Positions 1-56,884 of a stretch of 64,000 nucleotides of DNA are shown piece after piece; positions within the stretch are counted from its first letter, which is position 1, and every line of letters begins with the position of its first letter. The notes under the pieces were generated by a model, which saw only the letters and a program-made list of their open reading frames with translations, ran no database searches and was not told where the DNA came from. The stretch is from Antedon mediterranea. Lineage: Eukaryota; Animalia; Echinodermata. Both the position numbers and the translations under genes were made by a program. The stretch is from assembly GCF_964355755.1 (NCBI RefSeq), contig NC_092670.1:920201-984200 (forward strand), written 5' to 3'.

Positions 1-3000
1 ATTGCGTGTTTTACACAAAGTTACGCGCGCACGCGCATTTAAAATTTCAAAATGCGCGAAATTAATTTATAATCAACTTTCTACGCGTTTCATGTCGTTT
101 TAAGCATGTCAAAAATTCCCACGCGTGCGCACATTTTTACGTGTGCGGTGCGCACGTAGCATTGAAAACGTATTTTTTTCGCGTGATTTATGTTTTTCCA
201 GCCTTTTCATGTAATTTTACCAAATTTTTAACAATTTCGACTTAAAGATACGTCATACGAGCACGTCGAATTGGACAATTTGCGCGCGTTTTTTATGAAA
301 AGGTTAAAAAATTCGTTTAAAATATGCCTTTTTTTAAACAGTCGTAATTTCTAAACTAGACGGTCAACTTTTTGTGGATGGCATATTCTGGAAGTAGATG
401 AGTTGTAGATATCGGATCAGGTATTAATATGGCTAACCGGACATTGTGACGTCATCGTATGGCCACGCGAATATAAAATTTAGGATTTTTGTATCTTTCG
501 TCATAGGTCATCACATTGAATAGAGCGCATCTCCACTTATCCGTTTTCCATTTTCACCCCGATTTTGATATTGTCTAGGTCAATCAACTATCTTTCGCAT
601 GAGTGAAAAATATTTTAATTTTTATGACGTCATCATGCCTAAAAATTGAAATCACGTGTGGCATCAATTTCATCTTTACAGTAAATTTTAATCTGTTATA
701 GCTCGTAAGAATAAAATGTGATAATCACGATTAAAACTTTTTCTGGAAGCTATTGGATTGTAGATACGAAATTATGTCAAAATGTTGCCAATCGGATGTT
801 GTGACGTCATCATATGGCCAGTTAAATAAAAAAGGTCGTATTTTCATCTTTTGCGTCATAATTCATTACATTTAAAAGAGCGCGCATCAATATTTCACGT
901 ATTCAAATTTCTTCTACACGCTAATACGTTGTTGCTGAGATAATTTCCTTTCGGAATTGCTACCTTCGCGTTTCATTTTAAAACCGTCAACATGTTAAAA
1001 ATTGCAATAAATAGCGGGTCCCGTAATTTCACCTATTCTACACTGTATGTGATATGGATACAGATTATACTGTGTATACTATATATGAATTTAAACAATA
1101 AAATTCAGCAATAACAACATATCATATTCTTCAGTTCAGGTCATAATGCCAACGTGAACACTTCCTTTTGTCCTCAACCTATCCCCTTAATGTTAATGTT
1201 GCACCACTTGCGCGGCGGATAACCAAACTCGTCAAAGTGACGAGTTACATGTCTAGTCTTCTTTCTTTCTGTATGATTTTTGTGTAACGCTTTTCTCTAA
1301 AACTTGCAAACATAACATTTTGTTAACTATGTTAACATTTTGACATTTATGTAACGTCGTCAAGCGAAGCTTTTCATGATGTTTACAATTGCGCAACGTG
1401 ACGTACGCGCGATTTAACGATTTTCTCGTATTTAACATATGTCGAAAACCAAATAACATTTTAAAGTGAAACTTTGCAAAAGTTTAATTTATATCATGCG
1501 CTAACTTTCTGTTGAAAAAAAATTGCGTGTTTTACACAAAGTTACGCGCGCACGCGCATTTAAAATTTCAAAATGCGCAAAATTAATTTATAATCAACTT
1601 TCTACGCGTTTCATGTCGTTTTAAGCATGTCAAAAATTCCCACGTGTGCGCACATTTTTACGTGTGCGGTGCGCACGTAGCATTGAAAACGTATTTTTTT
1701 CGCGTGATTTATGTTTTTCCAGCCTTTTCTAGTAATTTTACCAAATTTTAAACAATTTCGACTTAAAGATACGTCATACGAGCACGTCGAATTGGACAAT
1801 TTGCGCGCGTTTTTTATGAAAAGGTTAAAAAATTCGTTTAAAATATGCCTTTTTTTAAACAGTTGTAATTTCTAAACTAGACGGTCAACTTTTTGTGGAT
1901 GACATATTCTGGAAGTAGATGAGTTGTAGGTATCGGATCAGGTATTAATATGGCTAACCGGACATTGTGACGTCATCGTATGGCCACGCGAATATAAAAT
2001 TTAGGATTTTTGTATCTTTCGTCATAGCTCATCACATTGAATAGAGCGCATCTCCACTTATTCGTTTTCCATTTTCACCCCGATTTTGATATTGTCTAGG
2101 TCAATCAACTATCTTTCGCATGAGTTAAAAATATTTTAATTTTTTTGACGTCATCATGCCTAAATATTTAAATCACGTGTGGCATCAATTTCATCTTTAC
2201 AGTAAATTTTAATCTGTTATAGCTCGTAAGAATAAAATGTGATAATCACGATTAAAACTTTTTCTGGAAGCTATTGGATTGTAGATACGAAATTATGTAA
2301 AAATGTTGCCCATCGGATGTTGTGACGTCATCATATGGCCAGTTAAATAAAAAAGGTCGTATTTTCATCTTTTGCGTCATAATTCATTACATTTAAAAAA
2401 GCGCGCATCAATATTTCACGTATTCAAATTTCTTCTACACGCTAATACGTTGTTGCTGAGATAATTTCCTTTCGGAATTGCTACCTTCGCGTTTCATTTT
2501 AAAACCGTCAACATGTTAAAAATTGCAATAAAAAGCGGGTCCCGTAATTTCACCTATTCTACACTGTATGTCACTGAGCTGTATGTGATATGGATACAGA
2601 TTATACTGTGTATACTATATATGAATTTAAATAATAAAATTCAGCAATAACAACATATCATATTCTTCAGTTCAGGTCATAATGCCAACGTGAACACTTC
2701 CTTTTGTCCTCAACCTATCTCCTTAATGTTAATGTTGCACCACTTGCGCGGCGGATAACCAAACTCGTCAAAGTGACGAGTTACATGTCTAGTTCTTAAT
2801 CTTCTTTCTTTCTGTATGATTTTTGTGTAACGCTTTTCTCTAAAACTTGCAAACATAACATTTTGTTAACTATGTTAACATTTTGACATTTATGTAACGT
2901 CGTCAAGCGAAGCTTTTCATGATGTTTACAATTGCGCAACGTGACGTACGCGCGATTTAACGATTTTCTCGTATTTAACATATGTCGAAAACCAAATAAC

Positions 3001-6000
3001 ATTTTAAAGTGAAACTTTGCAAAAGTTTAATTTATATCATGCGCTAACTTTCTGTTGAAAAAAAATTGCGTGTTTTACACAAAGTTACGCGCGCACGCGC
3101 ATTTAAAATTTCAAAATGCGCAAAATTAATTTATAATCAACTTTCTACGCGTTTCATGTCGTTTTAAGCATGTCAAAAATTCCCACGTGTGCGCACATTT
3201 TTACGTGTGCGGTGCGCACGTAGCATTGAAAACGTATTTTTTTCGCGTGATTTATGTTTTTCCAGCCTTTTCTAGTAATTTTACCAAATTTTAAACAATT
3301 TCGACTTAAAGATACGTCATACGAGCACGTCGAATTGGACAATTTGCGCGCGTTTTTTATGAAAAGGTTAAAAAATTCGTTTAAAATATGCCTTTTTTTA
3401 AACAGTTGTAATTTCTAAACTAGACGGTCAACTTTTTGTGGATGACATATTCTGGAAGTAGATGAGTTGTAGGTATCGGATCAGGTATTAATATGGCTAA
3501 CCGGACATTGTGACGTCATCGTATGGCCACGCGAATATAAAATTTAGGATTTTTGTATCTTTCGTCATAGCTCATCACATTGAATAGAGCGCATCTCCAC
3601 TTATTCGTTTTCCATTTTCACCCCGATTTTGATATTGTCTAGGTCAATCAACTATCTTTCGCATGAGTTAAAAATATTTTAATTTTTTTGACGTCATCAT
3701 GCCTAAATATTTAAATCACGTGTGGCATCAATTTCATCTTTACAGTAAATTTTAATCTGTTATAGCTCGTAAGAATAAAATGTGATAATCACGATTAAAA
3801 CTTTTTCTGGAAGCTATTGGATTGTAGATACGAAATTATGTAAAAATGTTGCCCATCGGATGTTGTGACGTCATCATATGGCCAGTTAAATAAAAAAGGT
3901 CGTATTTTCATCTTTTGCGTCATAATTCATTACATTTAAAAAAGCGCGCATCAATATTTCACGTATTCAAATTTCTTCTACACGCTAATACGTTGTTGCT
4001 GAGATAATTTCCTTTCGGAATTGCTACCTTCGCGTTTCATTTTAAAACCGTCAACATGTTAAAAATTGCAATAAAAAGCGGGTCCCGTAATTTCACCTAT
4101 TCTACACTGTATGTCACTGAGCTGTATGTGATATGGATACAGATTATACTGTGTATACTATATATGAATTTAAATAATAAAATTCAGCAATAACAACATA
4201 TCATATTCTTCAGTTCAGGTCATAATGCCAACGTGAACACTTCCTTTTGTCCTCAACCTATCTCCTTAATGTTAATGTTGCACCACTTGCGCGGCGGATA
4301 ACCAAACTCGTCAAAGTGACGAGTTACATGTCTAGTCATCTTTTTATTAGTTATCCGCATTCAGCGGATAACTCCTTGTAACTGTCCTGTTTCATCATCT
4401 TTTTTTTTTTTCTGTATTCTTCTTTCTTTCTGTCATTTTTGTGCAGAGCATATCTCAAAAACGTGTACAGTTAACATTTCATAACTTTGTCAACATATGG
4501 GCATTCACGTGAAGTTGTGCTTTTTTATTTTTGAATGACGTCAGAATTGCGCAACATGAATTACGCGCGTTTTAACGAATTTCGCGTATTTAACATAAAT
4601 CAAAAACCATATAACAATTTAAATTGAAACTTGGCAAAAGTTTAATTTATATTCTGCGCTAACTGACTGTGGGAAAAAAATGGCATGTTTCACACGAAGT
4701 TACGCGCGCACGCGCGTTTAAAATTTTAAAATGCGAAAAATCAATTTCTAATCAACTTTCTACGCGTTTCATGTCATTTTGACCATGTAAAAAATTCCCA
4801 AGCGCGCGAATATTTTTACGCGCGTGGTGCGCACGTAGCGTTGAAAACCATTTTTTTTGCGTGATTTAGGTTTTTCCAGCCTTTTCTAGTAATTTTACCA
4901 ACTTTTAAACGATTTCGACTTAAAATCAAGTCATACGAGCCCGTAGAATTGGATAATTTATGTGCGTTTTTTATGAAAAAGTTCAAAAATTCATCAAAAT
5001 TTGTCAAAATTATACCTTTTTTAAAACAGTTGTAGTTTCTAAACTAAACGGTAAAAGTTGTTTTTATTACGTATTCTGGAAGATGATGAGTTGTAGATAT
5101 CGTATCATGCATCAATATGGCTAACCGGACATTATGACGTCATCGTATGGCCACTCTAATATAAAATATAGCGATTTTTTCTCTTTTGTCATAGCGCATC
5201 ACATTTAATAGAGCGCATCTCCACTTATCCGTTTTCCATTTTCACGCGGATTTTGATATTGTCTAGGTCAATCAACTATCCTTTGCATGAGTTAAAAATA
5301 TTTTAATTTTTATGACGTCATCACGCCTAAAAATTTAAATTACGTGTGCCTTTAATTTCATCTTTACAGTAAATTTTAATCTGTTATAGCTCGTACGAAT
5401 AAAATGTGATAATCACAATTAAAACGTTTTCTGGAAGCTATTGAATTGTAGATACAAAATCATGTAAACATTTTGCCATTCGGATGTTGTGACGTCATCA
5501 TATGGCCAGTTAAATAAGAAAAGTCGTATTTTCATCTTTTGCGTCATAATTCATTACATTTAAAAGAGCGTGCATCAATATTTCACGTATTCAAATTTCT
5601 TCAGCACGTTAATATGTTGTTACTGAGATAATTTCCTTCCCAAATTGCTGTCTTAGTTTTTCATTTTGATACCGTCGCCATGTTTAAAATAGGAATAAAC
5701 GGGGGTTCCCGTAATTTCACCTATTCTACACTGTATGTAATATGTATACAGATTATGTATATACTATATGACACAAAATAACAGAATTCAGCAATAACAA
5801 CATATCATATTCTTCAGTTCAGGTCATATTGCCATAATCTTTTTCTGTGTCCAATATTCTAACGTATGACGTGCACGTGGCCTTTGTCGTGCGGATAACT
5901 AACTCGTCAAAGTGACGAGTTACATGTCTAGTTTTTCTTCTTTCTTTCTGTATGATTTTTGTGTAACGCTTTTCTCCAAAACTCGCAAACATAACATTTT

Positions 6001-9000
6001 GGTAACTATCTTAACATATTGACATTTACGTAACGTCGTCAAGCGAAGCTTTTCATGACGTTTACAATTGCGCAACGTGACTTACGCGCGATTTAACGAT
6101 TTTGTCGTATTTAACATAGCTCGACAACCAAATAACATTTCAACTTGAAACTTTGCAAAAGTTTAATTTATATCATGCGCTAACTTTCTGTTGAAAAAAA
6201 ATTGCGTGTTATTCATCACATTGAATAGAGCGCATCTCCACTTATCCGTTTTCCATTTTCACCCCGATTTTGATATTGTCTAGGTCAATCAACTATCTTT
6301 CGCATGAGTTAAAAATATTTTAATTTTTTTGACGTCATCATGCCTAAAAATTTAAATCACGTGTGGCATCAATTTCATCTTTACAGTAAATTTTAATCTG
6401 TTATAGCTCGTAAGAATAAAATTTGATAATCACGATTAAAACTTTTTCTGAAAGCTATTGGATTGTAGATACGAAATTATGTAAAAATGTTGCCAATCGG
6501 ATGTTGTGACGTCATCATATGGCCAGTTAAATAAAAAAGGTCGTATTTTCATCTTTTGCGTCATAATTCATTACATTTAAAAGAGCGCGCATCAATATTT
6601 CACGTATTCAAATTTCTTCTACACGCTAATACGTTGTGGCTGAGATAATTTCCTTTCGGAATTGCTACCTTCCCGTTTCATTTTAAAACCGTCAACATGT
6701 TAAAAATTGCAATAAATAGCGGGTCCCGTAAGTTCACATATTCTACACTGTATGTGATATGGATACAGATTATACTGTGTATACTATATATGAATTTATA
6801 TATAGATAAAATTCAGCAATAACAACATATCATATTCTTCAGTTCAGGTCATAATGCCAACGTGAACACTTCCTTTTGTCCTCAACCTATCCCCTTAATG
6901 TTAATGTTGCACCACTTGCGCGGCGGATAACCAAACTCGTCAAAGTGACGAGTTACATGTCTAGTCAACTTTTTGGTTATCCGCAACGAAGTTGCAGGAT
7001 AACCTCTTGTGATTGTACGAAATCATCATCTTTTTATTTTTGGTTATCCGCAACGAAGTTGCAGGATAACCTCTTGTGATTGTACGAAATCATCATCATC
7101 ATCATCATCATCAACTTTTTATTGGTTATCCGCAACGAAGTTGCAGGATAACCTCTTGTGATTGTACGAAATCATCATCATCATCATCATCATCATCAAC
7201 TTTTTATTCTTCTTCTTTCTTTCTGTATGATTTTTGTGTAACGCTTTTCTCTAAAACTCGCAAACATAACATTTCGGTAACTATGTTAACATTTTGACAT
7301 TTATGTAACGTCGTCAAGCGAAGCTTTTCATGATGTTTACAATTGCGCAACGTGACGTACGCGCGATTTAACGATTTTCTCGTATCTAACATATGTCGAA
7401 AACCAAATAACATTTTAAAGTGAAACTTTGCAAAAGTTTAATTTATATCATGCGCTAACTTTCTGTTGAAAAAAAATTGCGTGTTTTACACAAAGTTACG
7501 CGCGCACGCGTATTTAAAATTTCAAAATGCGCAAAATTAATTTATAATCAACTTTCTACGCGTTTTATGTCGTTTTAAGCATGTCAAAAATTCCCACGCG
7601 TGCGCACATTTTTACGTGTGCGGTGCGCACGTAGCATTGAAAACGTATTTTTTTCGCGTGACTTATGTTTTTCCAGCCTCTTCTAGTAATTTTACCAACT
7701 TTTAAACAATTTCGACTTAAAGTTACGTCATACGAGCACGTCGAATTGGACAATTTGGGCGCGTTTTTGATGAAAAAGTTCAAAAATTCGTCAAAATTAT
7801 GCCTTTTTTTAAACAGTCGTAATTTCTAAACTAGACGGTCAACTTTTTGTGGATGGCATATTCTGGAAGTAGATGAGTTGTAGATATCGGATCAGGTATT
7901 AACATGGCTAACCGGACATTGTGACGTCATCGTATGGCCACGCGAATATAAAATTTAGGATTTTTGTATCTTTCGTCATAGCTCATCACATTGAATAGAG
8001 CGCATCTCCACTTATCCGTTTTCCATTTTCACCCCAATTTTGATATTGCCTATGTCTATAAACTATCTTTCGCATGAGTTAAAAATATTTTAATTTTTAT
8101 GACGTCATCATGCCTAAAAATTGAAATCACGTGTGGCATTAATTTCATCTTTACAGTAAATTTTAATCTGTTATAGCTCGTAAGAATAAAATGTGATAAT
8201 CACGATTAAAACTTTTTCTGAAAGCTATTTGATTGTAGATACGAAATTATGTAAAAATTTTGCCAATCGGATGTTGTGACGTCATCATATGGCCAGTTAA
8301 ATAAAAAAGGTCGTATTTTCATCTTTTGCGTCATAATTCATTACATTTAAAAGAGCGCGCATCAATATTTCACGTATTCAAATTTCTTCTACACGCTAAT
8401 ACGTTGTTGCTGAGATAATTTCCTTTCGGAATTGCTACCTTCGCGTTTCATTTTAAAACCGTCAACATGTTAAAAATTGCAATAAATAGCGGGTCCCGTA
8501 ATTTCACCTATTCTACACTGTATGTGATATGGATACAGATTATACTGTGTATACTATATATGAATTTAAATAATAAAATTCAGCAATAACAACATATCAT
8601 ATTCTTCAGTTCAGGTCATAATGCCAACGTGAACACTTCCTTTTGTCCTCAACATATCCCCTTAATGTTAATGTTGCACCACTTGCGCGGCGGATAACCA
8701 AACTCGTCAAAGTGACGAGTTACATGTCTAGTTCTTCTTCTTTCTTTCTGTATGATTTTTGTGTAACGCTTTTCTCTGAAACTTGCAAACATAACATTTT
8801 GTTAACTATGTTAACATTTTGACATTTATGTAACGTCGTCAAGCGAAGCTTTTCATGATGTTTACAATTGCGCAACGTGACGTACGCGCGATTTAACGAT
8901 TTTCTCGTATTTAACATATGTCGAAAACCAAATAACATTTTAAAGTGAAACTTTGCAAAAGTTTAATTTATATCATGCGCTAACTTTCTGTTGAAAAAAA

Positions 9001-12000
9001 ATTGCGTGTTTTACACAAAGTTACGCGCGCACGCGTATTTAAAATTTCAAAATGCGCGAAACTAATTTATAATCAACTTTCTACGCGTTTCATGTCGTTT
9101 TAAGCATGTCAAAAATTCCCACGCGTGCGCACATTTTTACGTGTGCGGTGCGCACGTAGCATTGAAAAGGTATTTTTTTCGAGTGATTTATGTTTTTCCA
9201 GCCTTTTCATGTAATTTTACCAAATTTTAAACAATTTCGACTTAAAGATACGTCATACGAGCACGTCGAATTGGACAATTTGCGCGCGTTTTTTATGAAA
9301 AGGTTAACAAATTCGTTTAAAATATGCCTTTTTTTAAACAGTCGTAATTTCTAAACTAGACGGTCAAATTTTTGTGGATGGCATATTCTGGAAGTAGATG
9401 AGTTGTAGATATCGGATCAGGTATTAATATGGCTAACCGGACATTGTGACGTCATCGTATGGCCACGCGAATATAAAATTTAGGATTTTTGTATCTTTCG
9501 TCATAGCTCATCACATTGAATAGAGCGCATCTCCACTTATCCGTTTTCCATTTTCACCCGGATTTTGATATTGTCTAGGTCAATCAACTATCTTTCGCAT
9601 GAGTTAAAATATTTTAATTTTTTTGACGTCATCATGCCTAAAAATTTAAATCACGTGTGGCATCAATTTCATCTTTACAGTAAATTTTAATCTGTTATAG
9701 CTCGTAAGAATAAAATGTGATAATCACGATTAAAACTTTTTCTGGAAGCTATTGGATTGTAGATACGAAATTATGTAAAAATGTTGCCAATCGGATGTTG
9801 TGACGTCATCATATGGCCAGTTAAATAAAAAAGGTCGTATTTCCATCTTTTGCGTCATAATTCATTACATTTAAAAGAGCGCGCATCAATATTTCACGTA
9901 TTCAAATTTCTTCTACACGCTAATACGTTGTTGCTGAGATAATTTCCTTTCGGAATTGCTACCTTCCCGTTTCATTTTAAAACCGTCAACATGTTAAAAA
10001 TTGCAATAAATAGCGGGTCCCGTAATTTCACCTATTCTACACTGTATGTGATATGGATACAGATTATACTGTGTATACTATATATGAATTTAAACAATAA
10101 AATTCAGCAATAACAACATATCATATTCTTCAGTTCAGGTCATAATGCCAACGTGAACACTTCCTTTTGTCCTCAACCTATCCCCTTAATGTTAATGTTG
10201 CACCACTTGCGCGGCGGATAACCAAACTCGTCAAAGTGACGAGTTACATGTCTAGTTGGTTATCCGCAACGAAGTTGCAGGATAACCTCTTGTGATTGTA
10301 CGAAATCATCATCATCATCATCATCATCAACTTTTTGGTTATCCGCAACGAAGTTGCAGGATAACCTCTTGTGATTGTACGAAATCATCTTTTTTTTCAT
10401 CTTCTTTCTTTCTGTATGATTTTTGTGTAACGCTTTTCTCTAAAACTTGCAAACATAACATTTTGTTAACTATGTTAACATTTTGACATTCACGTAACGT
10501 CGTCAAGCGAAGCTTTTCATGATGTTTACAATTGCGCAACGCGACGTACGCGCGATTTAACGATTTTCTCGTATTAAACATATGTCGAAAACCAAACAAC
10601 ATTTTAAAATGAAACTTTGCAAAAGTTTAATTTATATCATGCGCTAACTGTCTGTTGAAAAAAAATTGCGTGTTTTACACAAAGTTACGCGCGCACGCGC
10701 ATTTAAAATTTCAAAATGCGCAAAATTAATTTCTAATCAACTTTCTACGCGTTTCATGTCGTTTTGAGCATGTCAAAAATTCCCACGCGTGCGCACATTT
10801 TTACGTGTACGGTGCGCACGTAGCATTGAAAACGTATTTTTTTCGCGTGATTTATGTTTTTTCAGCCTTTTCTAGTAATTTTACCAAATTTTAAACAATT
10901 TCGACTTAAAGATACGTCATACGAGCACGTCGAATTGGACAATTTGCGCGCGTTTTTTATGAAAAGGTTAAAAAATTCGTTTAAAATATGCCTTTTTTTA
11001 AACAGTCGTAATTTCTAAACTAGACGGTCAAATTTTTGTGGATGACATATTCTGGAAGTAGATGAGTTGTAGATATCGGATCAGGTATTAATATGGGTAA
11101 CCGGACATTATGACGTCATCGTATGGCCACGCGAACATAAAATTTAGGATTTTTGTATCTTTCGTCATAGCTCATCACATTGAATAGAGCGCATCTCCAC
11201 TTATCCGTTTTCCATTTTCACCCCGATTTTGATATTGTCTAGGTCAATCAAGTATCTTTCGCATGAGTTAAAAATATTTTAATTTTTTTGACGTCATCGT
11301 GCCTAAAAATTTAAATCACCTGTGGCATTAATTTCATCTTTACAGTAAATTTTAATCTGTTATAGCTCGTAAGAATAAAATGTGATAATCACGATTAAAA
11401 CTTTGTCTGGAAGCTATTGGATTGTAGATACGAAATTATGTAAAAATTTTGCCAATCGGATGTTGTGACGTCATAATATGGCCAGTTAAATAAAAAAGGT
11501 CGTATTTTCATCTTTTGCGTCATAATTCATTACATTTAAAAGAGCGCGCATCAATATTTCACGTATTCAAATTTCTTCTACACGCTAATACGTTGTTGCT
11601 GAGATAATTTTCTTTCGGAATTTCTACCTTCGCGTTTCATTTTAAAACCGTCAACAAAAAATTGCAATAAATAGCGGGTCCCGTAATTTCACCTATTCTA
11701 CACTGTATGTGATATGGATACAGATTATACTGTGTATACTATATATGAATTTAAATAATAAAATTCAGCAATAACAACATATCATATTCTTCAGTTCAGG
11801 TCATAATGCCAACGTGAACGCTTCCTTTTGTCCTCAACCTATCCCCTTAATGTTAATGTTGCACCACTTGCGCGGCGGATAACCAAACTCGTCAAAGTGA
11901 CGAGTTACATGTCTAGTTATTCTTCTTCTTTCTTTCTGTATGATTTTTGTGTAACGCTTTTCTCTAAAACTTGCAAACATAACATTTCGGTAACTATGTT

Positions 12001-15000
12001 AACATTTTGACATTTATGTAACGTCGTCAAGCGAAGCTTTTCATGATGTTTACAATCGCGCAACGTGACGTACGCGCGATTTAACGATTTTCTCGTATTT
12101 AACATATGTCGAAAACCAAATAACATTTTAAAGTGAAACTTTGGAAAAGTTTAATTTATATCATGCGCTAACTTTCTGTTGAAAAAAAATTGCGTGTTTT
12201 ACACAAAGTTACGCGCGCACGCGCATTTAAAATTTCAAAATGCGCAAAATTAATTTATAATCAACTTTCTACGCGTTTCATGTCGTTTTAAGCATGTCAA
12301 AAATTCCCTCGCGTGCGCACATTTTTACGTGTGCGGTGCGCACGTAGCATTGAAAACGTATTTTTTTCACGTGATTTATGTTTTTCCAGCCTTTTCTAGT
12401 ATTTTTACCAAATTTTAAACAATTTTGACTTAAAGATACGTCATACGAGCACGTCGAATTGGACAATTTGCGCGCGTTTTTTATGAAAACGTTAAAAAAT
12501 TCGTTTAAAATATGCCTTTTTTAAAACAGTCGTAATTTCTAAACTAGACGGTCAACTTTTTGTGGATGGCATTTTCTGGAAGTAGATGAGTTGTAGATAT
12601 CGGATCAGGTATTAATATGGCTAACCGGACACTGTGACGTCATCGTATGGCCACGCATATATAAAATTTAGGATTTTGTATCTTTCGTCATAGCTCATCA
12701 CATTGAATAGAGCGCATCTCCACTTATCTGTTTTCCATTTTCACCCCGATTTTGATATTGTCTAGGTCAATCAACTATCTTTCGCATGAGTTAAAAATAT
12801 TTTAATTTTTTTGACGTCATCGTGCCTAAAAATTTAAATCACGTGTGGCATTAATTTCATCTTTACAGTAAATTTTAATCTGTTATAGCTCGTAAGAAAA
12901 AAATGTGATAATCACGATTAAAACTTTTTCTGGAAGCTATTGGATTGTAGATACGAAATTATGTAAAAATGTTGCCAATCGGATGTTGTGACGTCATCAT
13001 ATAGCCAGTTAAATAAAAAAGGTCGTATTTTCATCTTTTGCGTCATAATTCATTACATTTAAAAGAGCGCGCATCAATATTTCACGTATTCAAATTTCTT
13101 CTACACGCTAATACGTTGTTGCTGAGATAATTTCCTTTCGGAATTGCTACCTTCGCGTTTCATTTTAAAACCGTCAACATGTTAAAAATTGCAATAAATA
13201 GCGGGTCCCGTAATTTCACCTATTCTACACTGTATGTGATATGGATACAGATTATACTGTGTATACTATATATGAATTTAAATAATAAAATTCAGCAATA
13301 ACAACATATCATATTCTTAAGTTCAGGTCATAATGCCAACGTGAACACTTTCTTTTGTCCTCAACCTATTCCCTTAATGTTAATGTTGCACCACTTGCGC
13401 GGCGGATAACCAAACTCGTCAAAGTGACGAGTTACATGTCTAGTTGGTTATCCGCAACGAAGTTGCAGGATAACCTCTTGTGATTGTACGAAATCATCAT
13501 CATCATCATCATCAACTTTTTATTGGTTATCCGCAACGAAGTTGCAGGATAACCTCTTGTGATTGTACGAAATCATCAACATCTTTTTCTTAATCTTCTT
13601 TCTTTCTGTATGATTTTTGTGTAACGCTTTTCTCTAAAACTTGCAAACATAACATTTTGTTAACTATGTTAACATTTTGACATTTATGTAACGTCGTCAA
13701 GCGAAGCTTTTCATGATGTTTACAATTGCGCAACGTGACGTACGCGCGATTTAACGATTTTCTCGTATTTAACATAGCTCGACAACCAAATAACATTTCA
13801 ACTTGAAACTTTGCAAAAGTTTAATTTATATCATGCGCTAACTTTCTGTTGAAAAAAAATTGCGTGTTTTACACAAAGTTACGCGCGCACGCGCATTTAA
13901 AATTTCAAAATGCGCAAAATTAATTTAAAATCAACTTTCTACGCGTTCCATGTTGTTTTAAGCATGTCAAAAATTCCCACGCGTGCGCACATTTTTACGT
14001 GTGCGGTACGCACGTAGCATTGAAAAGGTATTTTTTTCGCGTGATTTATATTTTTCCAGCCTTTTCTAGTAATTTTACCAAATTTTAAACAATTTCGACT
14101 TAAAGATACCTCATACGAGCACGTCGAATTGGACAATTTGCGCGCGTTTTTTATGAAAAGGTTAAAAAATTCGTTTAAAATATGCCTTTTTTTAAACAGT
14201 CGTAATTTCTAAACTAGACGGTCAACTTTTTGTGGATGGCATATTCTGGAAGTAGATGAGTTGTAGATATCGGATCAGGTATTAATATGGCTAACCGGAC
14301 ATTGTGACGTCATCGTATGGCCACACGAATATAAAATTTAGGATTTTTGTATCTTTCGTCATAGCTCATCACATTGAATAGAGCGCATCTCCACTTATCC
14401 GTTTTCCATTTTCACCCCGATTTTGATATTGTCTAGGTCAATCAAGTATCTTTTGCATGAGTTAAAAATATTTTAATTTTTTTGACGTCATCATGCCTAA
14501 AAATGTAAATCACGTGTGGCATTAATTTCATCTTTACAGTAAATTTTAATCTGTTATAGCTTGTAAGAATAAAATGTGATAATCACGATTAAAACTTTTT
14601 CTGGAAGCTATTGGATTGTAGATACGGAATTATGTAAAAATGTTGCCAATCGGATGTTGTGACGTCATCATGTGGCCAGTTAAATAAAAAAGGTCGTATT
14701 TTCATCTTTTGCGTCATAATTCATTACATTTAAAAGAGCGCGCATCAATATTTCACGTATTCAAATTTCTTCTACACGCTAATACGTTGTTGCTGAGATA
14801 ATTTCCTTTCGGAATTGCTACCTTCGCGTTTCATTTTAAAACCGTAAACATGTTAAAAATTGCAATAAATAGCGGGTCCCGTAATTTCACCTATTCTATG
14901 TATGTCACTGTATGTGATAGATACAGATTATACTGTGTATACTATATATGAATTTAAATAATAAAATTCAGCAATAACAACATATCATATTCTTCAGTTC

Positions 15001-18000
15001 AGGTCATAATGCCAACGTGAACACTTCCTTTTGTCCTCAACCTATCCCCTTAATGTTAATGTTGCACCACTTGCGCGGCGCGGCGGATAACCAAACTCGT
15101 CAAAGTGACGAGTTACATGTCTAGTTCTTCTTCTTTCTTTCTGTATGATTTTTGTGTAACGCTTTTCTCTGAAACTTGCAAACATAACATTTTGTTAACT
15201 ATGTTAACATTTTGACATTTATGTAACGTCGTCAAGCGAAGCTTTTCATGATGTTTACAATTGCGCAACGTGACGTACGCGCGATTTAACGATTTTCTCG
15301 TATTTAACATATGTCGAAAACCAAATAACATTTCAACTTGAAACTTTGCAAAAGTTTAATTTATATCATGCGCTAACTTTCTGTTGAAAAAAAATTGCGT
15401 GTTTTACACAAAGTTACGCGCGCACGCGCATTTAAAATTTCAAAATGCGCGAAATTAATTTATAATCAACTTTCTACGCGTTTCATGTCGTTTTAAGCAT
15501 GTCAAAAATTCCCACGCGTGCGCACCTTTTTACGTGTGCGGTGCGCACGTAGCATTGAAAACGTATTTTTTTCGCGTGATTTATGTTTTTCCAGCCTTTT
15601 CATGTAATTTTACCAAATTTTTAACAATTTCGACTTAAAGATACGTCATACGAGCACGTCGAATTGGACAATTTGCGCGCGTTTTTTATGAAAAGGTTAA
15701 AAAATTCGTTTAAAATATGCCTTTTTTTAAACAGTCGTAATTTCTAAACTAGACGGTCAAATTTTTGTGGATGACATATTCTGGAATTAGATGAGTTTTA
15801 GATATCGGATCAGGTATTAATATGGCTAACCGGACATTGTGACGTCATCGTATGGCCACGCGAATATAAAATTTAGGATTTTTGTATCTTTCGTCATAGC
15901 TCATCACATTGAATAGAGCGCATCTCCACTTATCCGTTTTCCATTTTCACCCCGATTTTGATATTGTCTAGGTCAATCAACTATCTTTCGCATGAGTTAA
16001 AAATATTTTAATTTTTTTGACGTCATCATGCCTAAAAATTTAAATCACGTGTGGCATCAATTTCATCTTTACAGTAAATTTTAATCTGTTATAGCTCGTA
16101 AGAATAAAATGTGATAATCACGATTAAAACTTTTTCTGGAAGCTATTGGATTGTAGATACGAAATTATGTAAAAATGTTGCCAATCGGATGTTGTGACGT
16201 CATCATATGGCCAGTTAAATAAAAAAGGTCGTATTTTCATCTTTTGCGTCATAATTCATTACATTTAAAAGAGCGCGCATCAATATTTCACGTATTCAAA
16301 TTTCTTCTACACGCTAATACGTTGTTGCTGAGATAATTACCTTTCGGAATTTCTACCTTCGCGTTTCATTTTAAAACCGTCAACATGTTAAAAATTGCAA
16401 TAAATAGCGGGTCCCGTAATTTCACCTATTCTACACTGTATGTGATATGGATACAGATTATACTGTGTATACTATATATGAATTTAAATAATAAAATTCA
16501 GCAATAACAACATATCATATTCTTCAGTTCAGGTCATAATGCCAACGTGAACACTTCTTTTTGTCCTCAACCTATCCCCTTTATTTTAATGTTGCACCAC
16601 TTGCGCGGCGGATAACCAAACTCGTCAAAGTGACGAGTTACATGTCTAGTTCTTCTTTCTTTCTGTATGATTTTTGTGTAACGCTTTTCTCCAAAACTCG
16701 CAAACATAACATTTTGGTAACTATCTTAACATATTGACATTTACGTAACGTCGTCAAGCGAAGCTTTTCATGACGTTTACAATTGCGCAACGTGACTTAC
16801 GCGCGATTTAACGATTTTGTCGTATTTAACATAGCTCAACAACAAAATAACATTTCAACTTGAAACTTTGCAAAAGTTTAATTTATATCATGCGCTAACT
16901 TTCTGTTGAAAAAAAATTGCGTGTTATACACAAAGTTACGGGTGCACGCGCATTTAAAATTTCAAAATGCGCAAAATTAATTTATAATCAACTTTCTACG
17001 CGTTTCATGTCGTTTTAAGCATGTCAAAAATTCCCACGCGTGCGCACATTTTTACGTGTGCGGTGCGCACGTAGAATTGAAAACGTAATTTTTTCGCGTG
17101 ATTTATGTTTTTTCAGCCTTTTCTAGTAATTTTACCAAATTTTAAACAATTTTGACTTAAAGATACGTCATACGAGCACGTCGAATTGGCCAATTTGCGC
17201 GCGTTTTTTATGAAAAGGTTAAAAAATTCGTTTAAAATATGACTTTTTTTAAACAGTCGTAATTTCTAAACTAGACGGTCAAATTTTTGTGGATGACATT
17301 TTCTAGAATTAGATGAGTTGTAGATATCGGATCAGGTATTAATATGGCTAACCGGACATTGTGACGTCATCGTATGGCCACGCGAATATAAAATTTAGGA
17401 TTTTTGTATCTTTCGTCATAGCTCATCACATTGAATAGAGCGCATCTCCACTTATCCGTTTTCCATTTTCACCCCGATTTTGATATTGTCTAGGTCAATC
17501 AACTATCTTTCGCATGAGTTAAAAATATTTTAATTTTTTTGACGTCATCATGCCTAAAAATTTAAATCACGTGTGGCATCAATTTCATCTTTACAGTAAA
17601 TTTTAATCTGTTATAGCTCGTAAGAATAAAATTTGATAATCACGATTAAAACTTTTTCTGGAAGCTATTGGATTGTAGATACGAAATTATGTAAAAATGT
17701 TGCCAATCGGATGTTGTGACGTCATCATATGGCCAGTTAAATAAAAAAGGTCGTATTTTCATCTTTTGCGTCATAATTCATTACATTTAAAAGAGCGCGC
17801 ATCAATTTTTCACGTATTCAAATTTCTTCTACACGCTAATACGTTGTTGCTGAGATAATTTCCTTTCGGAATTGCTACCTTCCCGTTTCATTTTAAAACC
17901 GTCAACATGTTAAAAATTGCAATAAATAGCGGGTCCCGTAAGTTCACATATTCTACACTGTATGTGATATGGATACAGATTATACTGTGTATACTATATA

Positions 18001-19699
18001 TGAATTTAAATAATAAAATTCAGCAATAACAACAGATCATATTCTTCAGTTCAGGTCATAATGCCAACGTGAACACTTCCTTTTGTCCTCAACCTATCCC
18101 CTTAATGTTAATGTTGCACCACTTGCGCGGCGGATAACCAAACTCGTCAAAGTGACGAGTTACATGTCTAGTTATTCTTCTTCTTTCTTTCTGTATGATT
18201 TTTGTGTAACGCTTTTCTCCAAAACTCGCAAACATAACATTTCGGTAACTATCTTAACATATTGACATTTACGTAACGTCGTCAAGCGAAGCTTTTCATG
18301 ACGTTTACAATTGCGCAACGTGACTTACGCGCGATTTAACGGTTTTGTCGTATTTAACATAGGTCGACAACCAAATAACATTTCAACTTGAAACTTTGCA
18401 AAAGTTTAATTTATATCATGCGCTAACTTTCTGTTGAAAAAAAATTGCGTGTTTTACACAAAGTTACGCGCGCACGCGCATTTAAAATTTCAAAATGCGC
18501 AAAATTAATTTATAATCAACTTTCTACGCGTTTCATGTCGTTTTAAGCATGTCAAAAATTCCCACGCGTGCGCACATTTTTACGTGTGCGGTGCGCACGT
18601 AGCATTGAAAACGTATTTTTTTCGCGTGATTTATGTTTTTCCAGCCTTTTCTAGTAATTTTACCAAATTTTAAACAATTTCGACTTAAAGATACGTCATA
18701 CGAGCACGTCGAATTGGACAATTTGCGCGCGTTTTTTATGAAAAGGTTAAAAAATTCGTTTAAAATATGCCATTTTTAAAACAGTCGTAATTTCTAAACT
18801 AGACGGTCAAATTTTTGTGGATGACATATTCTAGAAGTAGATGAGTTGTAGATATCGGATCAGGTATTAATATGACTAACCGGACATTATGACGTCATCG
18901 TATGGTCACGCGAATATAAAATTTAGGATTTTTGTATCTTTCGTCATAGCTCATCACATTGAATAGAGCGCATCTCCACTTATCCGTTTTCCATTTTCAC
19001 CCCGATTTTGATATTGTGTAGGTCAATCAACTATCTTTCGCATGAGTTAAAAATATTTTAATTTTTTTGACGTCATCATGCCTAAAAATTTAAATCACGT
19101 GTGGCATCAATTTCATCTTTACAGTAAATTTTAATCTGTTATAGCTCGTAAGAATAAAATGTGATAATCACGATTAAAACTTTTACTGGAAGCTATTGGA
19201 TTGTAGATACGAAATTATGTAAAAGTGTTGCCAATCGGATGTTGTGACGTCATCATATGGCCAGTTAAATAAAAAAGGTCGTATTTTCATCTTTTGCGTC
19301 ATAATTCATTACATTTAAAAGAGCGCGCATCAATATTTCACGTATTCAAATTTCTTCTACACGCTAATACGTTGTTGCTGAGATAATTTTCTTTCGGAAT
19401 TGCTAACTTCGCGTTTCATTTTAAAACCGTCAACATGTTAAAAATTGCAATAAATAGCGGGTCCAGTAATTTCACCTATTCTACACTGTATGTGATATGG
19501 ATACAGATTATACTGTGTATACTATATATGAATTTAAATAATAAAATTCAGCAATAACAACATATCATATTCTTCAGTTCAGGTCATAATGCCAACGTGA
19601 ACACTTCCTTTTGTCCTCAACCTATCCCTTTAATGTTAATGTTGCACCACTTGCGCGGCGGATAACCAAACTCGTCAAAGTGACGAGTTACATGTCTAG
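1..19699 (+). mobile_element. Nested cluster of ~1.55-1.6 kb non-autonomous Helitron2/Helentron-like (HINE/DINE-1-type) elements; continues beyond the left edge of the window
   Basis: 13 near-identical bodies end in subTIR GCGGATAACC + hairpin CTCGTCA-AAG-TGACGAG + TTACATGTCTAG (last G at 1256, 2792, 4335, 5931, 6964, 8731, 10255, 11916, 13443, 15124, 16649, 18171, 19699). 8 heads TTGGTTATCCGC-AACGAAGTT-GCAGGATAACC...(CAT)n start near 4347 (divergent variant), 6973, 7040, 7122, 10256, 10335, 13444, 13523. No TSD, no RepHel ORF. The subTIR + 5' inverted repeat + microsatellite + 3' stem-loop layout matches the HINE/DINE-1 architecture. Confidence 0.85.
4347..5931 (+). mobile_element. Complete divergent subfamily copy of the HINE-like element, inserted in the linker of another copy
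   Basis: Head TTAGTTATCCGC-ATTCA-GCGGATAACT, 3' subTIR GCGGATAACT, same hairpin and CTAG end; body alignable to but clearly diverged from the neighbouring copies. Confidence 0.85.
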
Positions 19700-20423: not shown

Positions 20424-22745
20424 ATGGCTTTTGACGGTAAGATAATGACAATCATTGGGAGTAATTATAATTCTAAAATAGTTTATTTAAGACTGACTGA
20501 ATAAAAAGGGGATTTCCCATCTCCAATGACCGGCATATAGCACGTACAGAGTACAGTGCTACATAATACTAGAATAGGTGGAACAATACATAATTTCATT
20601 TTAGGCCTACACTGTAGCAGAAGGAATTGGATTTAGCTATTTCCTAGATGTCTGCATTTTATGAGTCATATTAAGGCTATATCATGTTTTATATTAATTC
20701 AGCCAATTATTTTTTATAAGGAATGTTGATTAAAAATAAATTATAAATAAAAAAAAAAAAAAACCAAAATGTTCACTGTAGCTTGCTAGACCTAGTTAGT
20801 AATATACCAGGGAGTTTTATTTGACAACTCCCTGGTATTACTACTCAAGTAGTAAGAAAAAGGAAATAAACTTAAACTAGGTCATGGGAACTTTAAAAAG
20901 GGATCTTTTTTGGTTACACAGGTTATTATGATTTTTACATAACAAGCGATGACTATGATTGGGAGACCAGAATACTGCGGAAATTAGAAGCAAAGGGTCT
21001 CCGTGGTTACCACAGAAACACTTTTACCCTTGGAAGTTTGAAATCTAGTAGCAGACTCAATGGGATCAAGAACAGTAAAGTCACCATAATTGGTTTCGTA
21101 CCACTATCAAAAACAAAATCAAGCGTTGACAAATATCTCGCTAGTTTGTCGTTTGAATTTAAAGGAGAGTTGATATGCGTGCAGATAACAGAAGATTCTG
21201 TAATTCCTGACGAGTATGCAGGTCTTGTACATTACCATGGTTCTGATGAGGAAGGCCTCTGTTGTCGAATTGAAGAAGTTATAAAGAGTCTTCCTTCAGG
21301 TTGGTCCATTAAGAATATATATTTTTTGAAAAAAAAATTGGCAAAGCTTCATAAATTATTTTTCTTTTTGACCTTATGTTTTCAAGTTTCTTTGAGAATC
21401 CGTTCATCTTTGAATGCATTGTAAATATGTATATATTGGTATGAAATTATTGAATTCGAAAATGTTATCTTCTGAACTCTTTGGCTAATAATGTTGATTT
21501 TTTTACATCTTTTTAAGGAGGAGACAATTTTTCAATGGAAACTGGTATGTACTATTCATTACAGTATAATATGAACTATTCATTTAGTACACATGACATG
21601 CCTCTCGACTCCATACACAGCTGTTGAGTAATTCTGCAAATGCTCATATAATATTCTAAGCTGCATGTCAGTTAAGTGGCACAAAATGAAAGGGGACCAC
21701 CATGTGAAGACTAATATGATCTTCCCATCTCTATTTAAACATAGTTTGCCATTTATATAAATATTACTCAAAATGTTGCTGTATTGAGCTGTATTTTCAC
21801 AGATTAGTGATACAATAAAGTGATAAAATTACATTGTATAAATACCTGTATGTGATTATATCTAAACATTGTCTTAGGGGATGTCGTTGATTCAAGTCGT
21901 CCACAACCATTAGGTAAGACTACTGTTTAAAATGTACATGTGTTATGAATCATCATCAAAGGCCGCAGCCACAGTGCAGCACACTGGGAGCAGATGCCCA
22001 TCTTTTTTTAATGTGTGCCATGTGCATTGTATGTACACATAGGCTTTACAAAGACAAGAGTAAAGCGTCATGTTTTAAAGATAGAAGCAATGTGGCCGGC
22101 ACAGCTCTTTCTTTATCCCTTTCACGTGCTAATCCCTTTCACGTGCTAATCCCTTACCATTATGTCATATTATGTAAAAAAATTCTTTATATCAAACCAA
22201 TGGTAACAAATTCCTTTCACAAATAACTTCTTCAGAAGAAATTGTTTGAGAAAGGAACAACTAAACCATCAAGAAAGTATTTACCACCTATTTTTGTATT
22301 TTTTACAATTGGTTTGATATAAAGAATTGTATACAAGTTGTTTACAAACCGGATGAACATTTACAGTCATTATCGCTCTCACTCACAATAATATGAAATT
22401 CCAAAATCTTGGCTCCTCCTTCTATTTTTGGCAATAGCTTATGTATATTGTTTTTCTGTTCTAGAAGACTTTGGACCACTCACAGACCTCCGTATTGCCG
22501 AGTTGGCAAGAGAGCTTGGTAATGATTGGTCCATGTTGGCAACGTATTTAGGGATTTCACTCGCTCAACAACAAGATTTACGGCGTGATCATCAAATCTG
22601 TAGTCGGGAACGCAATCAAGAAATGTTGGTTTTATGGCGCAAGAGAGATTCATGCTCTCCATCAGAGAAACTACGTACTCTAATGACTGCATTGGAAAAA
22701 AGTGATAGAACAGATTTAAAAGACATTGTTAGTCTATGGCAATGA
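20424..22745 (+). CDS. TIR-like domain + C-terminal DEATH domain protein, 244 aa, 5 exons
   Basis: Exons 20424-20436, 20922-21299, 21518-21544, 21878-21913, 22465-22745; all introns GT-AG and phase 1; total 735 nt. N-terminus MAFDGYYDFYITSDDYDWETRILRKLEAKGLRGYHRNTFTLG...IKNSKVTIIGF resembles TIR box1/BB-loop. The last exon LTDLRIAELARELGNDWSMLATYLGIS...QEMLVLWRKR...LMTALEKSDRTDL is a typical death domain. Confidence 0.8.
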
Positions 22746-24022: not shown

Positions 24023-27000
24023 TTAGTTTGTGGCAGACTTTCTTTGTTTTTTTCCTTGAGATTTTCTCAATTTTTCTTTGTTTTGTTTTTGGTCTTCTTT
24101 CATCTTCTTTACAAGTGTTTGTAGCTAGAAAAGGAAATCAATGACGAAAAAATAATTTAAAAATAAAATCAACTATAATAATAATAATATTTATATACTG
24201 TAGCGCCCTTTTCATTTTTCCTTTTTATTTACTGAACTTAAACATTTTATAATTGAAAAAATTTTGAATTGAAAAAATATATTTTATATTTGATGTTGAA
24301 ATTTGTGCGTTTTATTGTAAGATGATGTAATCCATCTCCTTCTTTGTTAATTGCCCCATGAGAGATGAATAAAGATATATACTCATACTGATAGCATTTT
24401 AAGATATAGATAATCTATGTGTACATTACACACACTTACCGACTTCCTGGACTTTTTCTTAACAAGTTCTTTATCAGTTGTGTCCATCTCATTGTCTCTG
24501 TCGCTCCAATTATGCGTCATTTCATCCCATTCAAAATCAACTGGAGATGTTTCTTCTAAACGGTTATTATTATGATTGTTTTTCACCTCTGGATTCGAGT
24601 CCTTTGTTGACAAGTATTTACCATTTGTTTGAGATAATCTATTAGACTTCTTTAATTTCTTTTGTGATTTATCTTTAATGTCCGTTTCAGAAGCCGATCT
24701 CTTTTGAACAGGAATTTCTGTTTCAGATGGAGTTACCTTTTCTATAGTTGTTTCAGCAACATTTTCTTTCTCTATAATATTTTCTGATATGCCTTGGATT
24801 GGTTTGACAGAAGTTGACGGAATATCTTGTACTTGCGTAGATGTGGAAGGAACACTTATTTTATTCCGTAAAGAAAATTGCTCAGCATCAATGTAATAAC
24901 TTTCTTCTGCGTTAATTTCTCTTTTTTCATCCGCATTTCTATAGAAATAAACATTTATTTAAAAAAAAATTTAATAAAAATAATTTATTTGGAAGCTACA
25001 CTCTTAAAACAGTGACACACTTCTTGAATGAAGGTGCGTCTAGAGTAATACAAATAAAAGAAAAGTGATTTAACGATAGGTCTATTTACAAGAAAACTAA
25101 ATTATTTACAAAATATAATACAGGGTTAAAAACAAATATTACTTTCCCTTCTATTTTTCCACAAATAAAGAAATTCAATATTAGGTGTGCACTTTACCCT
25201 TCCCTCATACAGACACCCAATCATTTCTTAGTAAACATTATTTATCATTTATTTATTCAACTCACTGTATAGAGGGTGCTGTTACTGTTCGTAATCTATG
25301 CCAAGTGTACTCAACAAACATCGATTGCTCCATTAAACGATTCATTCGTGAGAAATGTCTCTCTAAAACAAAATTGAAATCATGGTAAAATCATTTTTCT
25401 AGGTTTCCGAATCAAATAATTAATATTCAAAATGGGTATAATATTCTTTCAATATTAATAAAGTGATATAATTGTTGAATATTGCTATAGTTAACGTACG
25501 AGTGTAAGGTAACAAGCCTTCAAGACTCTCTGTAATGTTGACACACTCCAAAAGCTGGGCCTGTGAAAACTGACTGAGCACCGTGTTCACTACAGCTTGG
25601 GCTACATGACAGTGCTTAGAGTTGGTGTTCCACTGAACGGCAAACTTCAGTAATGCATCTAAAGAAAAACAATTGAAAGTTAAGCACTGTTTACACTATC
25701 AAACTAGTGCCCAAATATGGTAGTAATATGATGTCATCGTGTCCATATGAGCACATCACATTTTTGTTGTCACATACAGTTTGGTAGTGTAGACAATAGA
25801 AATCACAATGTAATGCTATATTTAGAACTTGATGGATGGATTCAATAAAAATGGAAACAGAGATTATGCACTTAATTACCTGTATGGTATTTATAATATA
25901 AGAAAGGAAAGGTTTTGATAGATCTATTTCAAAATATTATGTTAGTCTTACCTATTTGATCAAGTCTGAGTTTTGCAATAATATTTGCAAGACATGCTTT
26001 GCCATCGGATTCATTTAACATCCCTGCAGAAATAAATAAATTTATCAGTGTTTGTGATCAAAGCAATAAAGCTTACTTAGACTGTCTCACTCAATATTTC
26101 AATCTTTTTCTTATAATTATATCATGTTAAGAAATAAAAGATGGCAGACGACTAATGTTTCAAACAAGTGCATGCATGTTAATGTTTTAATGTTTGTATC
26201 GCACACAAAAATGATCAAAATGACGGCAACCAAAACTACGTAATTAAGTCCATTAAATACCTTTTAAAATATTAAGAAGTCTAAATGGTTGTTCCAACGT
26301 TAGAGCCAACCCGATTGCTTTCTTGAAATTTTTACCAATAATCATGTTTGATAGTTGCTGTAGTCTGCGAAAAAAACAAATACAACAATATATTAAATTG
26401 TTTAGCATTCTACAAAATTCTATCATAGAAGAAAATATGTTTAAAAAAAAGTTACCTAATGTTTAATTCATACTTCAACACATCAATGATCCATGTACTA
26501 ACTAAAATTGTAATAAAATTGAGCTTTAAAAATAAAAACAGAGTGTCTCACTTGATAACTTGATCCTCTTCTTTTGATTGGTTCTCTTCCCATTCCCTTT
26601 CTGTTACATCCTACGCACAAACAGTTTAAAATATTATTTAATAACAATAATAATATATCCTGGATTTATATACGCTGAACATTATTACCCCAGACATTTG
26701 TTTTTGGATCAAACACATATGGAAACATACTCCCATCAAATGCAGCTAGTAATCAGCGCAAAGCTGTGTCTTTATCTAACCGGGTACCCATTTATACATT
26801 TGGTTGGAGAGAGGCAAACATAATTAAAGTATCTTGCCTAGGATACAAGCAACGTGACGAGAGTTGGATTCAAACCACGATCAGTAGTCCAACTTCCAAC
26901 ACACTGCACCACATGCCCTTATTTATATTGGTTTATACAAGTCTATAAAATCACTAGCAACATCGGTGAAAATGTCACCCAATTTGATGTAAATACATTC

Positions 27001-42835: not shown

Positions 42836-43082
42836 ATTGATGTTTCTGTTTGGACTTTGCTCTGAGAACAAATCAACATTTAAATTCTTTAATTAAATAA
42901 TATTAACAATAAATATGAATAAGTATTTTCAGTTTCATATAAAAATTTTGTTTTGTTATTGTTAACGTTTATATACGAATTCTGACAAAAAAGGATAATA
43001 TTTAAAAAAATACAATTACAATGCAAGAAAATAGAAATGATAAATGTAAAAGGTCATAGTTTCAAGGCAGATGGAGCTTTAA

Positions 43083-47779: not shown

Positions 47780-48185
47780 TCAGCAGTGTGGACACAGCCT
47801 AGACATTGAATTTAAACAGGAGTTTCTATCCCATTATCATAGTATCTTACTATACCAGTGTGGACACAGTCTAGAAATGAATGTAAACAGGAGCTACCAG
47901 GCCATAGTATCTTACTTTACCAGTGCAAACACATCCTAGAAATTAAATGTAATCAGGATATTTCTATAGGCCATAATATCTTACTTTACCAGTGTGGACA
48001 CAGCCTATAAATTGAATGTAAACATGAGTTTCTACAGGTCATAATATCTTACTTTACCAGTGTGGACACAGCCTATAAATTGAATGTAAACCTGAGTTTC
48101 TATAGGCCATAATATCTTACTTTATCAGTGTGGACACAGCCTACAAATTAAATGTAAACATGAGTTTCTATAGGCCGTAGTATCT
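47780..48185. repeat. Degenerate ~68-bp tandem repeat, about 6 copies
   Basis: ATCTTACTTTACCAGTGTGGACACAGCCTA...GTAAAC recurs at 47978, 48046, 48114 and earlier. Confidence 0.85.
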
Positions 48186-50484: not shown

Positions 50485-51075
50485 ATTGATAGCATTACTA
50501 TTGATAGCATTACTATTGATAGCATTACTATTGATAGCATTACTATTGATAGCATTACTATTGATAGCATTACTATTGATAGCATTACTATTGATAGCAT
50601 TACTATTGATAGCATCACTATTGATAGCATCACTATTGATAGCATCACTATTGATAGCATCACTATTGATAGCATCACTATTGATAGCATTACTATTGAT
50701 AGCATTACTATTGATAGCATTACTATTGATAGCATTACTATTGATAGCATTACTATTGATAGCATTACTATTGATAGCATTACTATTGATAGCATTACTA
50801 TTGATAGCATTACTATTGATAGCATTACTATTGATAGCATTACTATTGATAGCATTACTATTGATAGCATTACTATTGATAGCATTACTATTGATAGCAT
50901 TACTATTGATAGCATTACTATTGATAGCATTACTATTGATAGCATTACTATTGATAGCATTACTATTGATAGCATTACTATTGATAGCATTACTATTGAT
51001 AGCATTACTATTGATAGCATTACTATTGATAGCATTACTATTGATAGCATTACTATTGATAGCATTACTATTGAT
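50485..51075. repeat. 15-bp minisatellite (ATTGATAGCATTACT), about 39 copies
   Basis: Nearly perfect array with a block of 5 ATCACT variant units at ~50610-50680. Confidence 0.98.
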
Positions 51076-56766: not shown

Positions 56767-56884
56767 CTGTAAAGATGAAAAGAGAATGGTTAACATTAAT
56801 AAACATAATTGTTAACAAATATTACAATAATCATCAGGTATGGGTGTGGTGGTAAAAATTGAAGGCCCAGTGTACTATCACTTA

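Follow-up and report, generated by a model that had tools for sequence, protein, structure and literature searches.

Tandem arrays of Helitrons are usually ascribed to read-through or to unequal crossing-over. Clusters that form by insertion of an element into its own copies are known for Zepp of Chlorella, a self-nesting retrotransposon that uses other enzymes, and DIRS-1 of Dictyostelium, likewise a retrotransposon with other enzymes, is said (in work attributed to Cappello in 1984) to build clusters by preferential insertion into its own copies. A lepidopteran Helitron-like family reportedly disrupts (GAAA)n, to judge from a title. Here we analyze a window of 64,000 nt from Antedon mediterranea (contig NC_092670.1, positions 920,201 to 984,200 of the forward strand), of which positions 1-19699 consist of copies of a single 1.6-kb non-coding element. 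Each copy has a 5' head, a short microsatellite linker, a body and a CTAG end. We interpret this array, with a probability of roughly 0.8, as a nested stack of at least 13 Helentron-type (HINE) copies that grew mainly by repeated self-insertion into the element's own linker.

The closest described systems are cited here from excerpts of the respective sources. The anatomy of HINE/DINE-1 elements has been set out in PMC4067079, and for the oyster element Cg_HINE in PMC7492417 (see also PMC11417382); in their available portions, the first two accounts do not mention nesting into the element's own microsatellite linker. For FoHeli of Fusarium oxysporum, a Helitron2 of the same HLE2 group as our element, self-insertion near the 5' end has been proposed, with the first 31-85 nt repeated and up to five 5' termini (PMC5148889, PMC13342296). 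However, FoHeli heads stack on a single 3' end, whereas in the present array every host body was kept, the linkers can be restored to the base, at least 13 copies are involved and the genome is of animal type. Proto-Helentron, an autonomous element of about 14 kb that the excerpts report only from Phytophthora (PMC4067079, PMC11417382), shares the 5' TT, the 3' CTAG and insertion between A and T (hereafter A-T); unlike the present element it is autonomous, and its repeats and hairpin are arranged differently. Double insertion at one target site, where site preference produces tandem junctions, has been described as a seed of satellites (McGurk and Barbash, 10.1101/158386). That route involves target duplications and head-to-tail dimers, while here the target lies inside the element and each insertion adds a target. 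Related work covers read-through arrays and shuffled oyster loci (PMC12628747), telomere-targeted Helitrons (PMC13085455) and HINE abundance in oysters (10.64898/2026.02.10.705023). In the literature covered, from which subscription journals were largely missing, no account was found of a HINE stack that is deep and balanced, has its linkers restored and forms a satellite-like array. Self-insertion near the 5' end is already known, as a proposal in fungi, and the deep balanced stack forming a satellite-like array appears to be new.

Nested copies and their linkers

A scan for termini recovered 8 heads and 13 CTAG ends in positions 1-19699, all on the + strand (Table 1). Read as brackets, they form exactly the string given in a first-pass annotation of this DNA, which had proposed the nesting. 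Seven of the eight heads are identical over 53 nt and the eighth, at 4347, belongs to a sister family; because the changed inverted-repeat arm at end 5931 matches the change in the arm of head 4347, these two termini belong together. Spacings from end to end vary between 1033 and 1767 bp and the junctions between units differ; the identical junctions and most-alike neighbors of a classical satellite are lacking.

Nesting was tested by automatic excision of innermost head-to-end units, last in, first out. This removed 8 elements of 1582-1610 bp and left 5 ends unmatched, as expected from the earlier prediction of at least five unmatched heads upstream of the window, although the number could be four given that bodies 1262-2792 and 2805-4335 are identical. 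All six nested left/right pairs of split linkers rebuilt a 19-nt core exactly (6/6), as had been claimed from the letters alone. Four of the rebuilt cores are identical to the intact linker at 7197-7215, and two are identical to each other, representing a second haplotype. The nested order is set by the brackets alone. When the six right halves were permuted, 4 of 720 arrangements were exact throughout (12 of 720 by length alone), and the nested order was among those four. Pairing the halves first in, first out gave lengths of 19, 16, 25, 19, 13, and 22, failed at four of the six and was rejected.

The strongest single check of the nesting is head 6973, whose body starts 9.6 kb later, beyond three doublets (each an inner copy within a host). 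The linker restored from this head and body 16650 equals the one restored from fragment 4336 and body 5932, and the two were cut at a different base. Compared from 16656 and 5941, these bodies are mutual nearest relatives that differ at 9 of 1021 sites (0.9%) with clade support of 99/95, which bears out the relationship that the annotation had drawn from shared variants. The six visible insertion sites were also as annotated, three at A-T and three between two Ts (T-T), all in the same orientation, and they lie 67-82 nt from the host head in the four cases with a visible head. Breakpoints occupy three distinct positions among these six, with four further sites half-visible, and serial duplication is disfavored because the breakpoints differ between copies. 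The sister-family copy at 4347-5931, with its co-varied inverted repeats, used the same linker, which qualifies the claim of a single self-targeting element. Similarly, the claimed lack of a target site duplication applies to a TT duplication, which is excluded because TC follows 3 of the 13 ends, whereas T follows all 13, so that a one-base T duplication would be indistinguishable from none. Nested self-insertion is in our view very probably real, and it is well resolved.

Same-family bodies are 0.9-4.2% apart, with the exception of one adjacent pair (1262-2792 and 2805-4335) that is identical over 1531 bp and may have arisen by duplication, by insertion of a copy into its own donor or by an error of assembly. 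This pair would fit an ordinary tandem array, one in which slippage varied the linkers while the units multiplied by rolling-circle read-through or unequal crossing-over, and Helitron tandem arrays of that kind are known (PMC4067079; Xiong 2016 as summarized in PMC12628747). Such an origin is nonetheless very improbable here, since neither process can yield stacked heads with complementary stubs in last-in-first-out order, and it is contradicted for 4336-19699. It is also at odds with the relationships among the bodies: 10 of the 12 same-family bodies have a non-adjacent nearest relative, and only one adjacent pair are nearest relatives.

Doublets 1 and 3 share a breakpoint. Their hosts differ at 22 of 1515 sites and their inner copies at 50 of 1514 (p = 0.0013), their inner linker types differ as well, and doublet 2 has another breakpoint; the three doublets are not duplicates of each other. 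Copying in cis into the own donor was rejected for all three, as inner and host bodies are 2.2-2.9% apart and are not nearest relatives. A build-up from blocks was also considered, in which the doublets would have formed elsewhere and arrived by end bypass or as circles, and 1257-4335 would be a tandem duplication, leaving fewer local insertions than copies. The three balanced doublets do meet at a circle-type junction, the bodies at 1262 and 2805 are identical, the bodies are mosaic, and composite elements in Fusarium move with several 5' termini (PMC5148889). However, each doublet would still need a self-insertion of its own because no two of them agree in both breakpoint and inner linker type, and the two identical bodies begin with different linker stubs. 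We consider block build-up unlikely, and it would alter where the insertions occurred rather than whether they did.

The annotation further held that the array stores its insertion order. What stands is a partial order: an inner copy came after its host, and the order among the doublets is not given, as the three share one site. Two linkers each took two insertions, 2 of the 9 forks in a tree of the 13 bodies are supported, and divergence by private changes does not track nesting depth. If only A-T and T-T sites were used, the doublets would have been added leftwards (13444, then 10256, then 7040).

Recurrence in public contigs and choice of target

Sixteen public runs contain the element or part of it. 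Contigs were examined from five of these (X2, X3, X12, X13, and X15), and X2, which gave one contig, was left out; runs with small shares of the element (X8-X11) do not enter the evidence. Junctions were searched with a 120-bp stretch (window 8672-8791) spanning the junction at 8731; X12 and X13 represent one sample, and the remaining runs thus cover three samples from three studies. The passage from CTAG end to linker is crossed by contigs of X12, X13, X15, and X3. Three of those in X13 had depths of 1971, 402, and 168 against 46-74 for the six listed private deletion joints (26-43, 5-9, and 2-4 times, respectively). The junction type seen at 16650 accounts for 0.6-1.9% of the summed depth in 4/4 runs, values that are lower bounds because overlapping contigs inflate the denominator. 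Among the 22 loose ends listed of 52, end-to-head junctions were found in 14 contigs of X12 and 11 contigs of X15, together with CTAG ends followed by linker-plus-body starts of sister families. Self-insertion recurs beyond positions 1-19699, and together with linker restoration these contig junctions strongly support nested self-insertion into the element's own linker, as annotated. Dispersed copies exist too, as one X12 contig leaves the CTAG end into other DNA (depth 266). As a separate observation, loose ends in X12, X13, X15, and X3 point to at least two further sister families that share the 3' end region or are linker targets.

An assembly artefact in a high-copy repeat, for which the identical pair could be a duplicated unit, is extremely unlikely. 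Eleven of the 12 same-family bodies are distinct, the junction types occur in contigs of all three samples, and an assembler would have no reason to restore linkers across 9.6 kb.

The annotation also described the linker as the element's own landing pad. Within the element this holds, as the linker is its most T-rich 21-mer (0.76 versus 0.62 for the next) and its longest pyrimidine tract (18 nt versus 9). Six of the eight sites in the element that are as T-rich as those used fall in the linker, and within the element T-richness can explain both the position and the orientation of the insertions. Genome-wide, an excess was argued from a model and contig depth. The 44.3-kb flank contains 284 equally T-rich sites that hold no copy, a comparison biased by the choice of this window for its array. 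In a Yule-Simon growth model with assumed genome size and copy number, a self-insertion share of about 0.1-0.2 was needed for one stack of at least 12, against a share of 0.0005-0.006 for loose T-rich targeting at 500-2000 copies; rough contig depth, a weak estimate, puts the family at about 500-1500 copies. Relative to the genome, targeting of the linker probably goes beyond T-richness.

Target sequence alone offers a possible but doubtful alternative. Nesting would then be real, and a strong one-strand preference of the transposase or its endonuclease for long T/pyrimidine tracts would suffice without any recognition of the resident element. The composition of the linker and the six of eight equal sites within it agree with this, as does the known preference of HINEs for T-rich targets (PMC4067079, PMC7492417), and the 44.3-kb flank has only two tracts of at least 18 nt. 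A strict pyrimidine-tract rule fits poorly, however, as (CAT)n contains two of the half-visible sites and the outermost flank, though T-rich, is no pyrimidine tract. Looser rules expect at most 1e-7 such stacks at 1500 copies, the upper end of the rough depth estimate. The recurrence of end-to-head junctions also counts against target sequence alone. Homing beyond base composition is, in our estimate, about an even call or marginally worse. The more general proposal, that some animal HINE families home on themselves, with a transposase that recognizes the resident 5' end and delivers copies into the adjoining microsatellite linker much more often than base composition would account for, is tentative and falls somewhat short of even odds. 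If true, sister families would share the typical DINE-1/HINE linker as an inbuilt landing pad, and dispersed transposons would have, in self-insertion with positive feedback, a general and separate way of becoming satellite-like arrays that can be read as brackets.

For growth of the stack by self-insertion, we propose that a Helentron transposase made elsewhere in the genome acts in trans on the non-coding copies. Each new copy would enter the T-rich linker of a resident copy, 50-95 bases in from the front end, on the 5' side of a T and always with the same orientation. This would proceed by single-strand copy-paste via a circle joined CTAG-to-TT and without target duplication, in analogy to Helitron biochemistry; the canonical Helitron Helraiser uses a circular intermediate and copy-paste transposition without target duplication, prefers A-T and then T-T targets in AT-rich context, and displays no local hopping (PMC4778049). 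The top strand of the linker would supply the T to which the CTAG end is joined, with the host head and body staying intact around the newcomer. Every insertion would split one linker and bring a fresh one, so that targets would increase with the stack in a positive feedback, and the end-to-head junctions at 10255 and 13443 may result from insertion into the T-run directly before a resident head. We attribute the excess of self-insertions to a combined cause: no other part of the element is as good a T/pyrimidine target as the linker, and transposase sitting on the adjoining 5' inverted repeat and hairpin might draw incoming copies, a second component to which we give an even chance. The bodies were likely reshuffled afterwards, through gene conversion or template switching.

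Several observations weigh against growth mainly by self-insertion into a targeted linker. With pyrimidine tracts of at least 18 nt as targets and about 5000 copies in 300 Mb, 3.9 such stacks would be expected unaided. One adjacent pair of bodies is identical, and inner copies are not younger than their hosts (private changes 24 v 6, 15 v 15, and 13 v 7, inner versus host). Incompatible site pairs make up 59 of 174 near pairs and 165 of 317 far pairs (p = 0.005); recombination has acted, because the bodies are mosaic. No junction contig listed from the public runs extends 31 letters to each side of the joint, as the bridging rule asks, and depth is not copy number; amplified nested units could raise junction depth, and the sample behind X12 and X13 may be the source of the window itself. 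The 0.6-1.9% of depth reported above concerns one junction type, for which the neutral expectation reached up to 0.5% in the worst case tried. The long-range order of the array rests on assembly. Finally, no autonomous partner was seen in the window or in scans of metagenome and viral contigs, which yielded no copy of the element: the exact 20-nt end motif had 0 loci there, and a relaxed motif gave 20 and 28 loci, rejected as chance hits since 0 of 48 matched the element by blastn.

Class of the element

The reference intact copy (7122-8731, 1610 bp) starts with TT and ends with CTAG. Its 12-bp subterminal inverted repeats resemble those of HINE/DINE-1 elements (11-17 bp, about 38-60 bp from the 3' end), with the 3' arm beginning 42 nt before the end. 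The 3' hairpin at 8701-8721 (-8.8 kcal/mol) stops 10 nt short of the end, where HINEs carry a palindrome 8-35 bp from the end, and the 5' hairpin at 7124-7153 (-11.7 kcal/mol) with a microsatellite behind it is likewise a HINE feature. No stop-to-stop frame of at least 120 amino acids was found in positions 1-19699, in agreement with the absence of coding capacity in HINEs (the reference copy has about 1.5 kb free of long frames), and an Rfam search of 6900-10300 returned no match. T-rich targets and the absence of a TT duplication point the same way, though a one-base T duplication would look no different from none. In contrast to HINE/DINE-1 elements, which in the available excerpts generally insert at T-T and carry Ts on both termini, the element ends in CTAG, with TC next in 3 of 13 cases, uses A-T as often as T-T (3/6 visible sites each, all sites T-rich) and has no central tandem repeats. 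Canonical Helitrons (HLE1) are matched at the 3' side, with all 13 ends being CTAG after a hairpin and half of the visible sites A-T, but not at the 5' side, where 8/8 heads start with TT and carry an inverted-repeat arm instead of a TC without inverted repeats. We file the element provisionally as HINE-like HLE2. A 144-bp internal direct repeat (7861-8003 and 8216-8358, 72% alike) is perhaps a decayed central repeat.

The array represents a third route to Helitron tandem arrays, with base-exact evidence, and gives the DINE-1/HINE microsatellite, long noted, a testable role as a target of insertion. Every junction documents where, in nature, an HLE2 transposase chose to insert. Repeat finders and assemblers will mistake loci of this kind for plain tandem repeats.

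Layout of the array and flanking DNA

The coordinates of the array and of the reference copy are listed in Table 1. Doublet 2 adjoins doublet 1 end-to-head, and doublet 3 adjoins doublet 2 in the same way.

Table 1. Components of the array and landmarks of the reference copy, in window positions.
Feature	Positions	Strand	Remarks
Heads	4347, 6973, 7040, 7122, 10256, 10335, 13444, 13523	+	4347 is the sister-family variant
CTAG ends	1256, 2792, 4335, 5931, 6964, 8731, 10255, 11916, 13443, 15124, 16649, 18171, 19699	+
Body and CTAG end	1-1256	+	Head upstream of window
Right linker half, body and end	1257-2792	+	Head upstream; body identical to next
Right linker half (type intact in 13523 copy), body and end	2793-4335	+	Head upstream
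11-nt middle fragment of twice-split linker	4336-4346	+
Sister-family element, complete (1585 bp) and 14-18% apart, at an A-T site	4347-5931	+	Co-changed inverted-repeat arms
Body with right linker half; 505 columns deleted internally near 6210	5932-6964	+	Joins fragment 4336
8-nt middle fragment of outermost copy's linker	6965-6972	+
Head and left linker half of copy with body 16650-18171	6973-7039	+
Doublet 1	7040-10255	+	Host 7040-7121 (head) and 8732-10255 (body) around inner intact copy 7122-8731
5' arm of 12-bp subterminal inverted repeat	7122-7133	+	Inside 5' hairpin 7124-7153
Intact (CAT)n / T-run / (TTC)n linker, landing zone	7171-7226	+	49-104 nt into element; (CAT)n at 7171-7198
3' arm 8690-8701, 3' hairpin 8701-8721 and CTAG end	8690-8731	+
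Doublet 2	10256-13443	+	Host 10256-10334 (head) and 11917-13443 (body) around inner copy 10335-11916
Doublet 3	13444-16649	+	Host 13444-13522 (head) and 15125-16649 (body) around inner copy 13523-15124
Right linker half and body of head 6973	16650-18171	+
Right linker half, body and outermost end	18172-19699	+	Joins fragment 6965; T-rich unique DNA next

Beyond 19699 the window contains intron-rich, gene-bearing DNA with Death, WD40 and RING-TRAF exons, and no full copy of the family was found in this 44.3-kb flank; the array locus is therefore no general transposon heap. A 175-amino-acid open frame without Pfam match lies 1.2 kb downstream of the array (20897-21424, + strand), followed at 2.7 kb by a Death-domain exon (22392-22745, + strand). 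WD40 exons occupy 24383-28311 on the - strand, and a RING plus TRAF-zinc-finger frame and then a serine-rich frame lie at 40820-42892, also on the - strand. An unrelated element of about 390 bp at 31797-32185 (- strand) appears to carry subterminal inverted repeats of 15 bp and to end in CTAG with a T behind it; it possibly represents another HINE-like family with ends of this type. A 113-bp stretch at 37882-37994 is 69% alike to element positions 381-492 and could be an old relative or a shared module. The flank also contains a fold-back or MITE-like element at 33448-34397, with inverted arms of about 135 bp that are 96-99% complementary, and minisatellites at 37322-37532, 38981-39489, and 47784-48185 (period 68 in each), 50485-51075 (period 15), 54245-54568 (53), 56882-59146 (69), and 61359-61627 (27).

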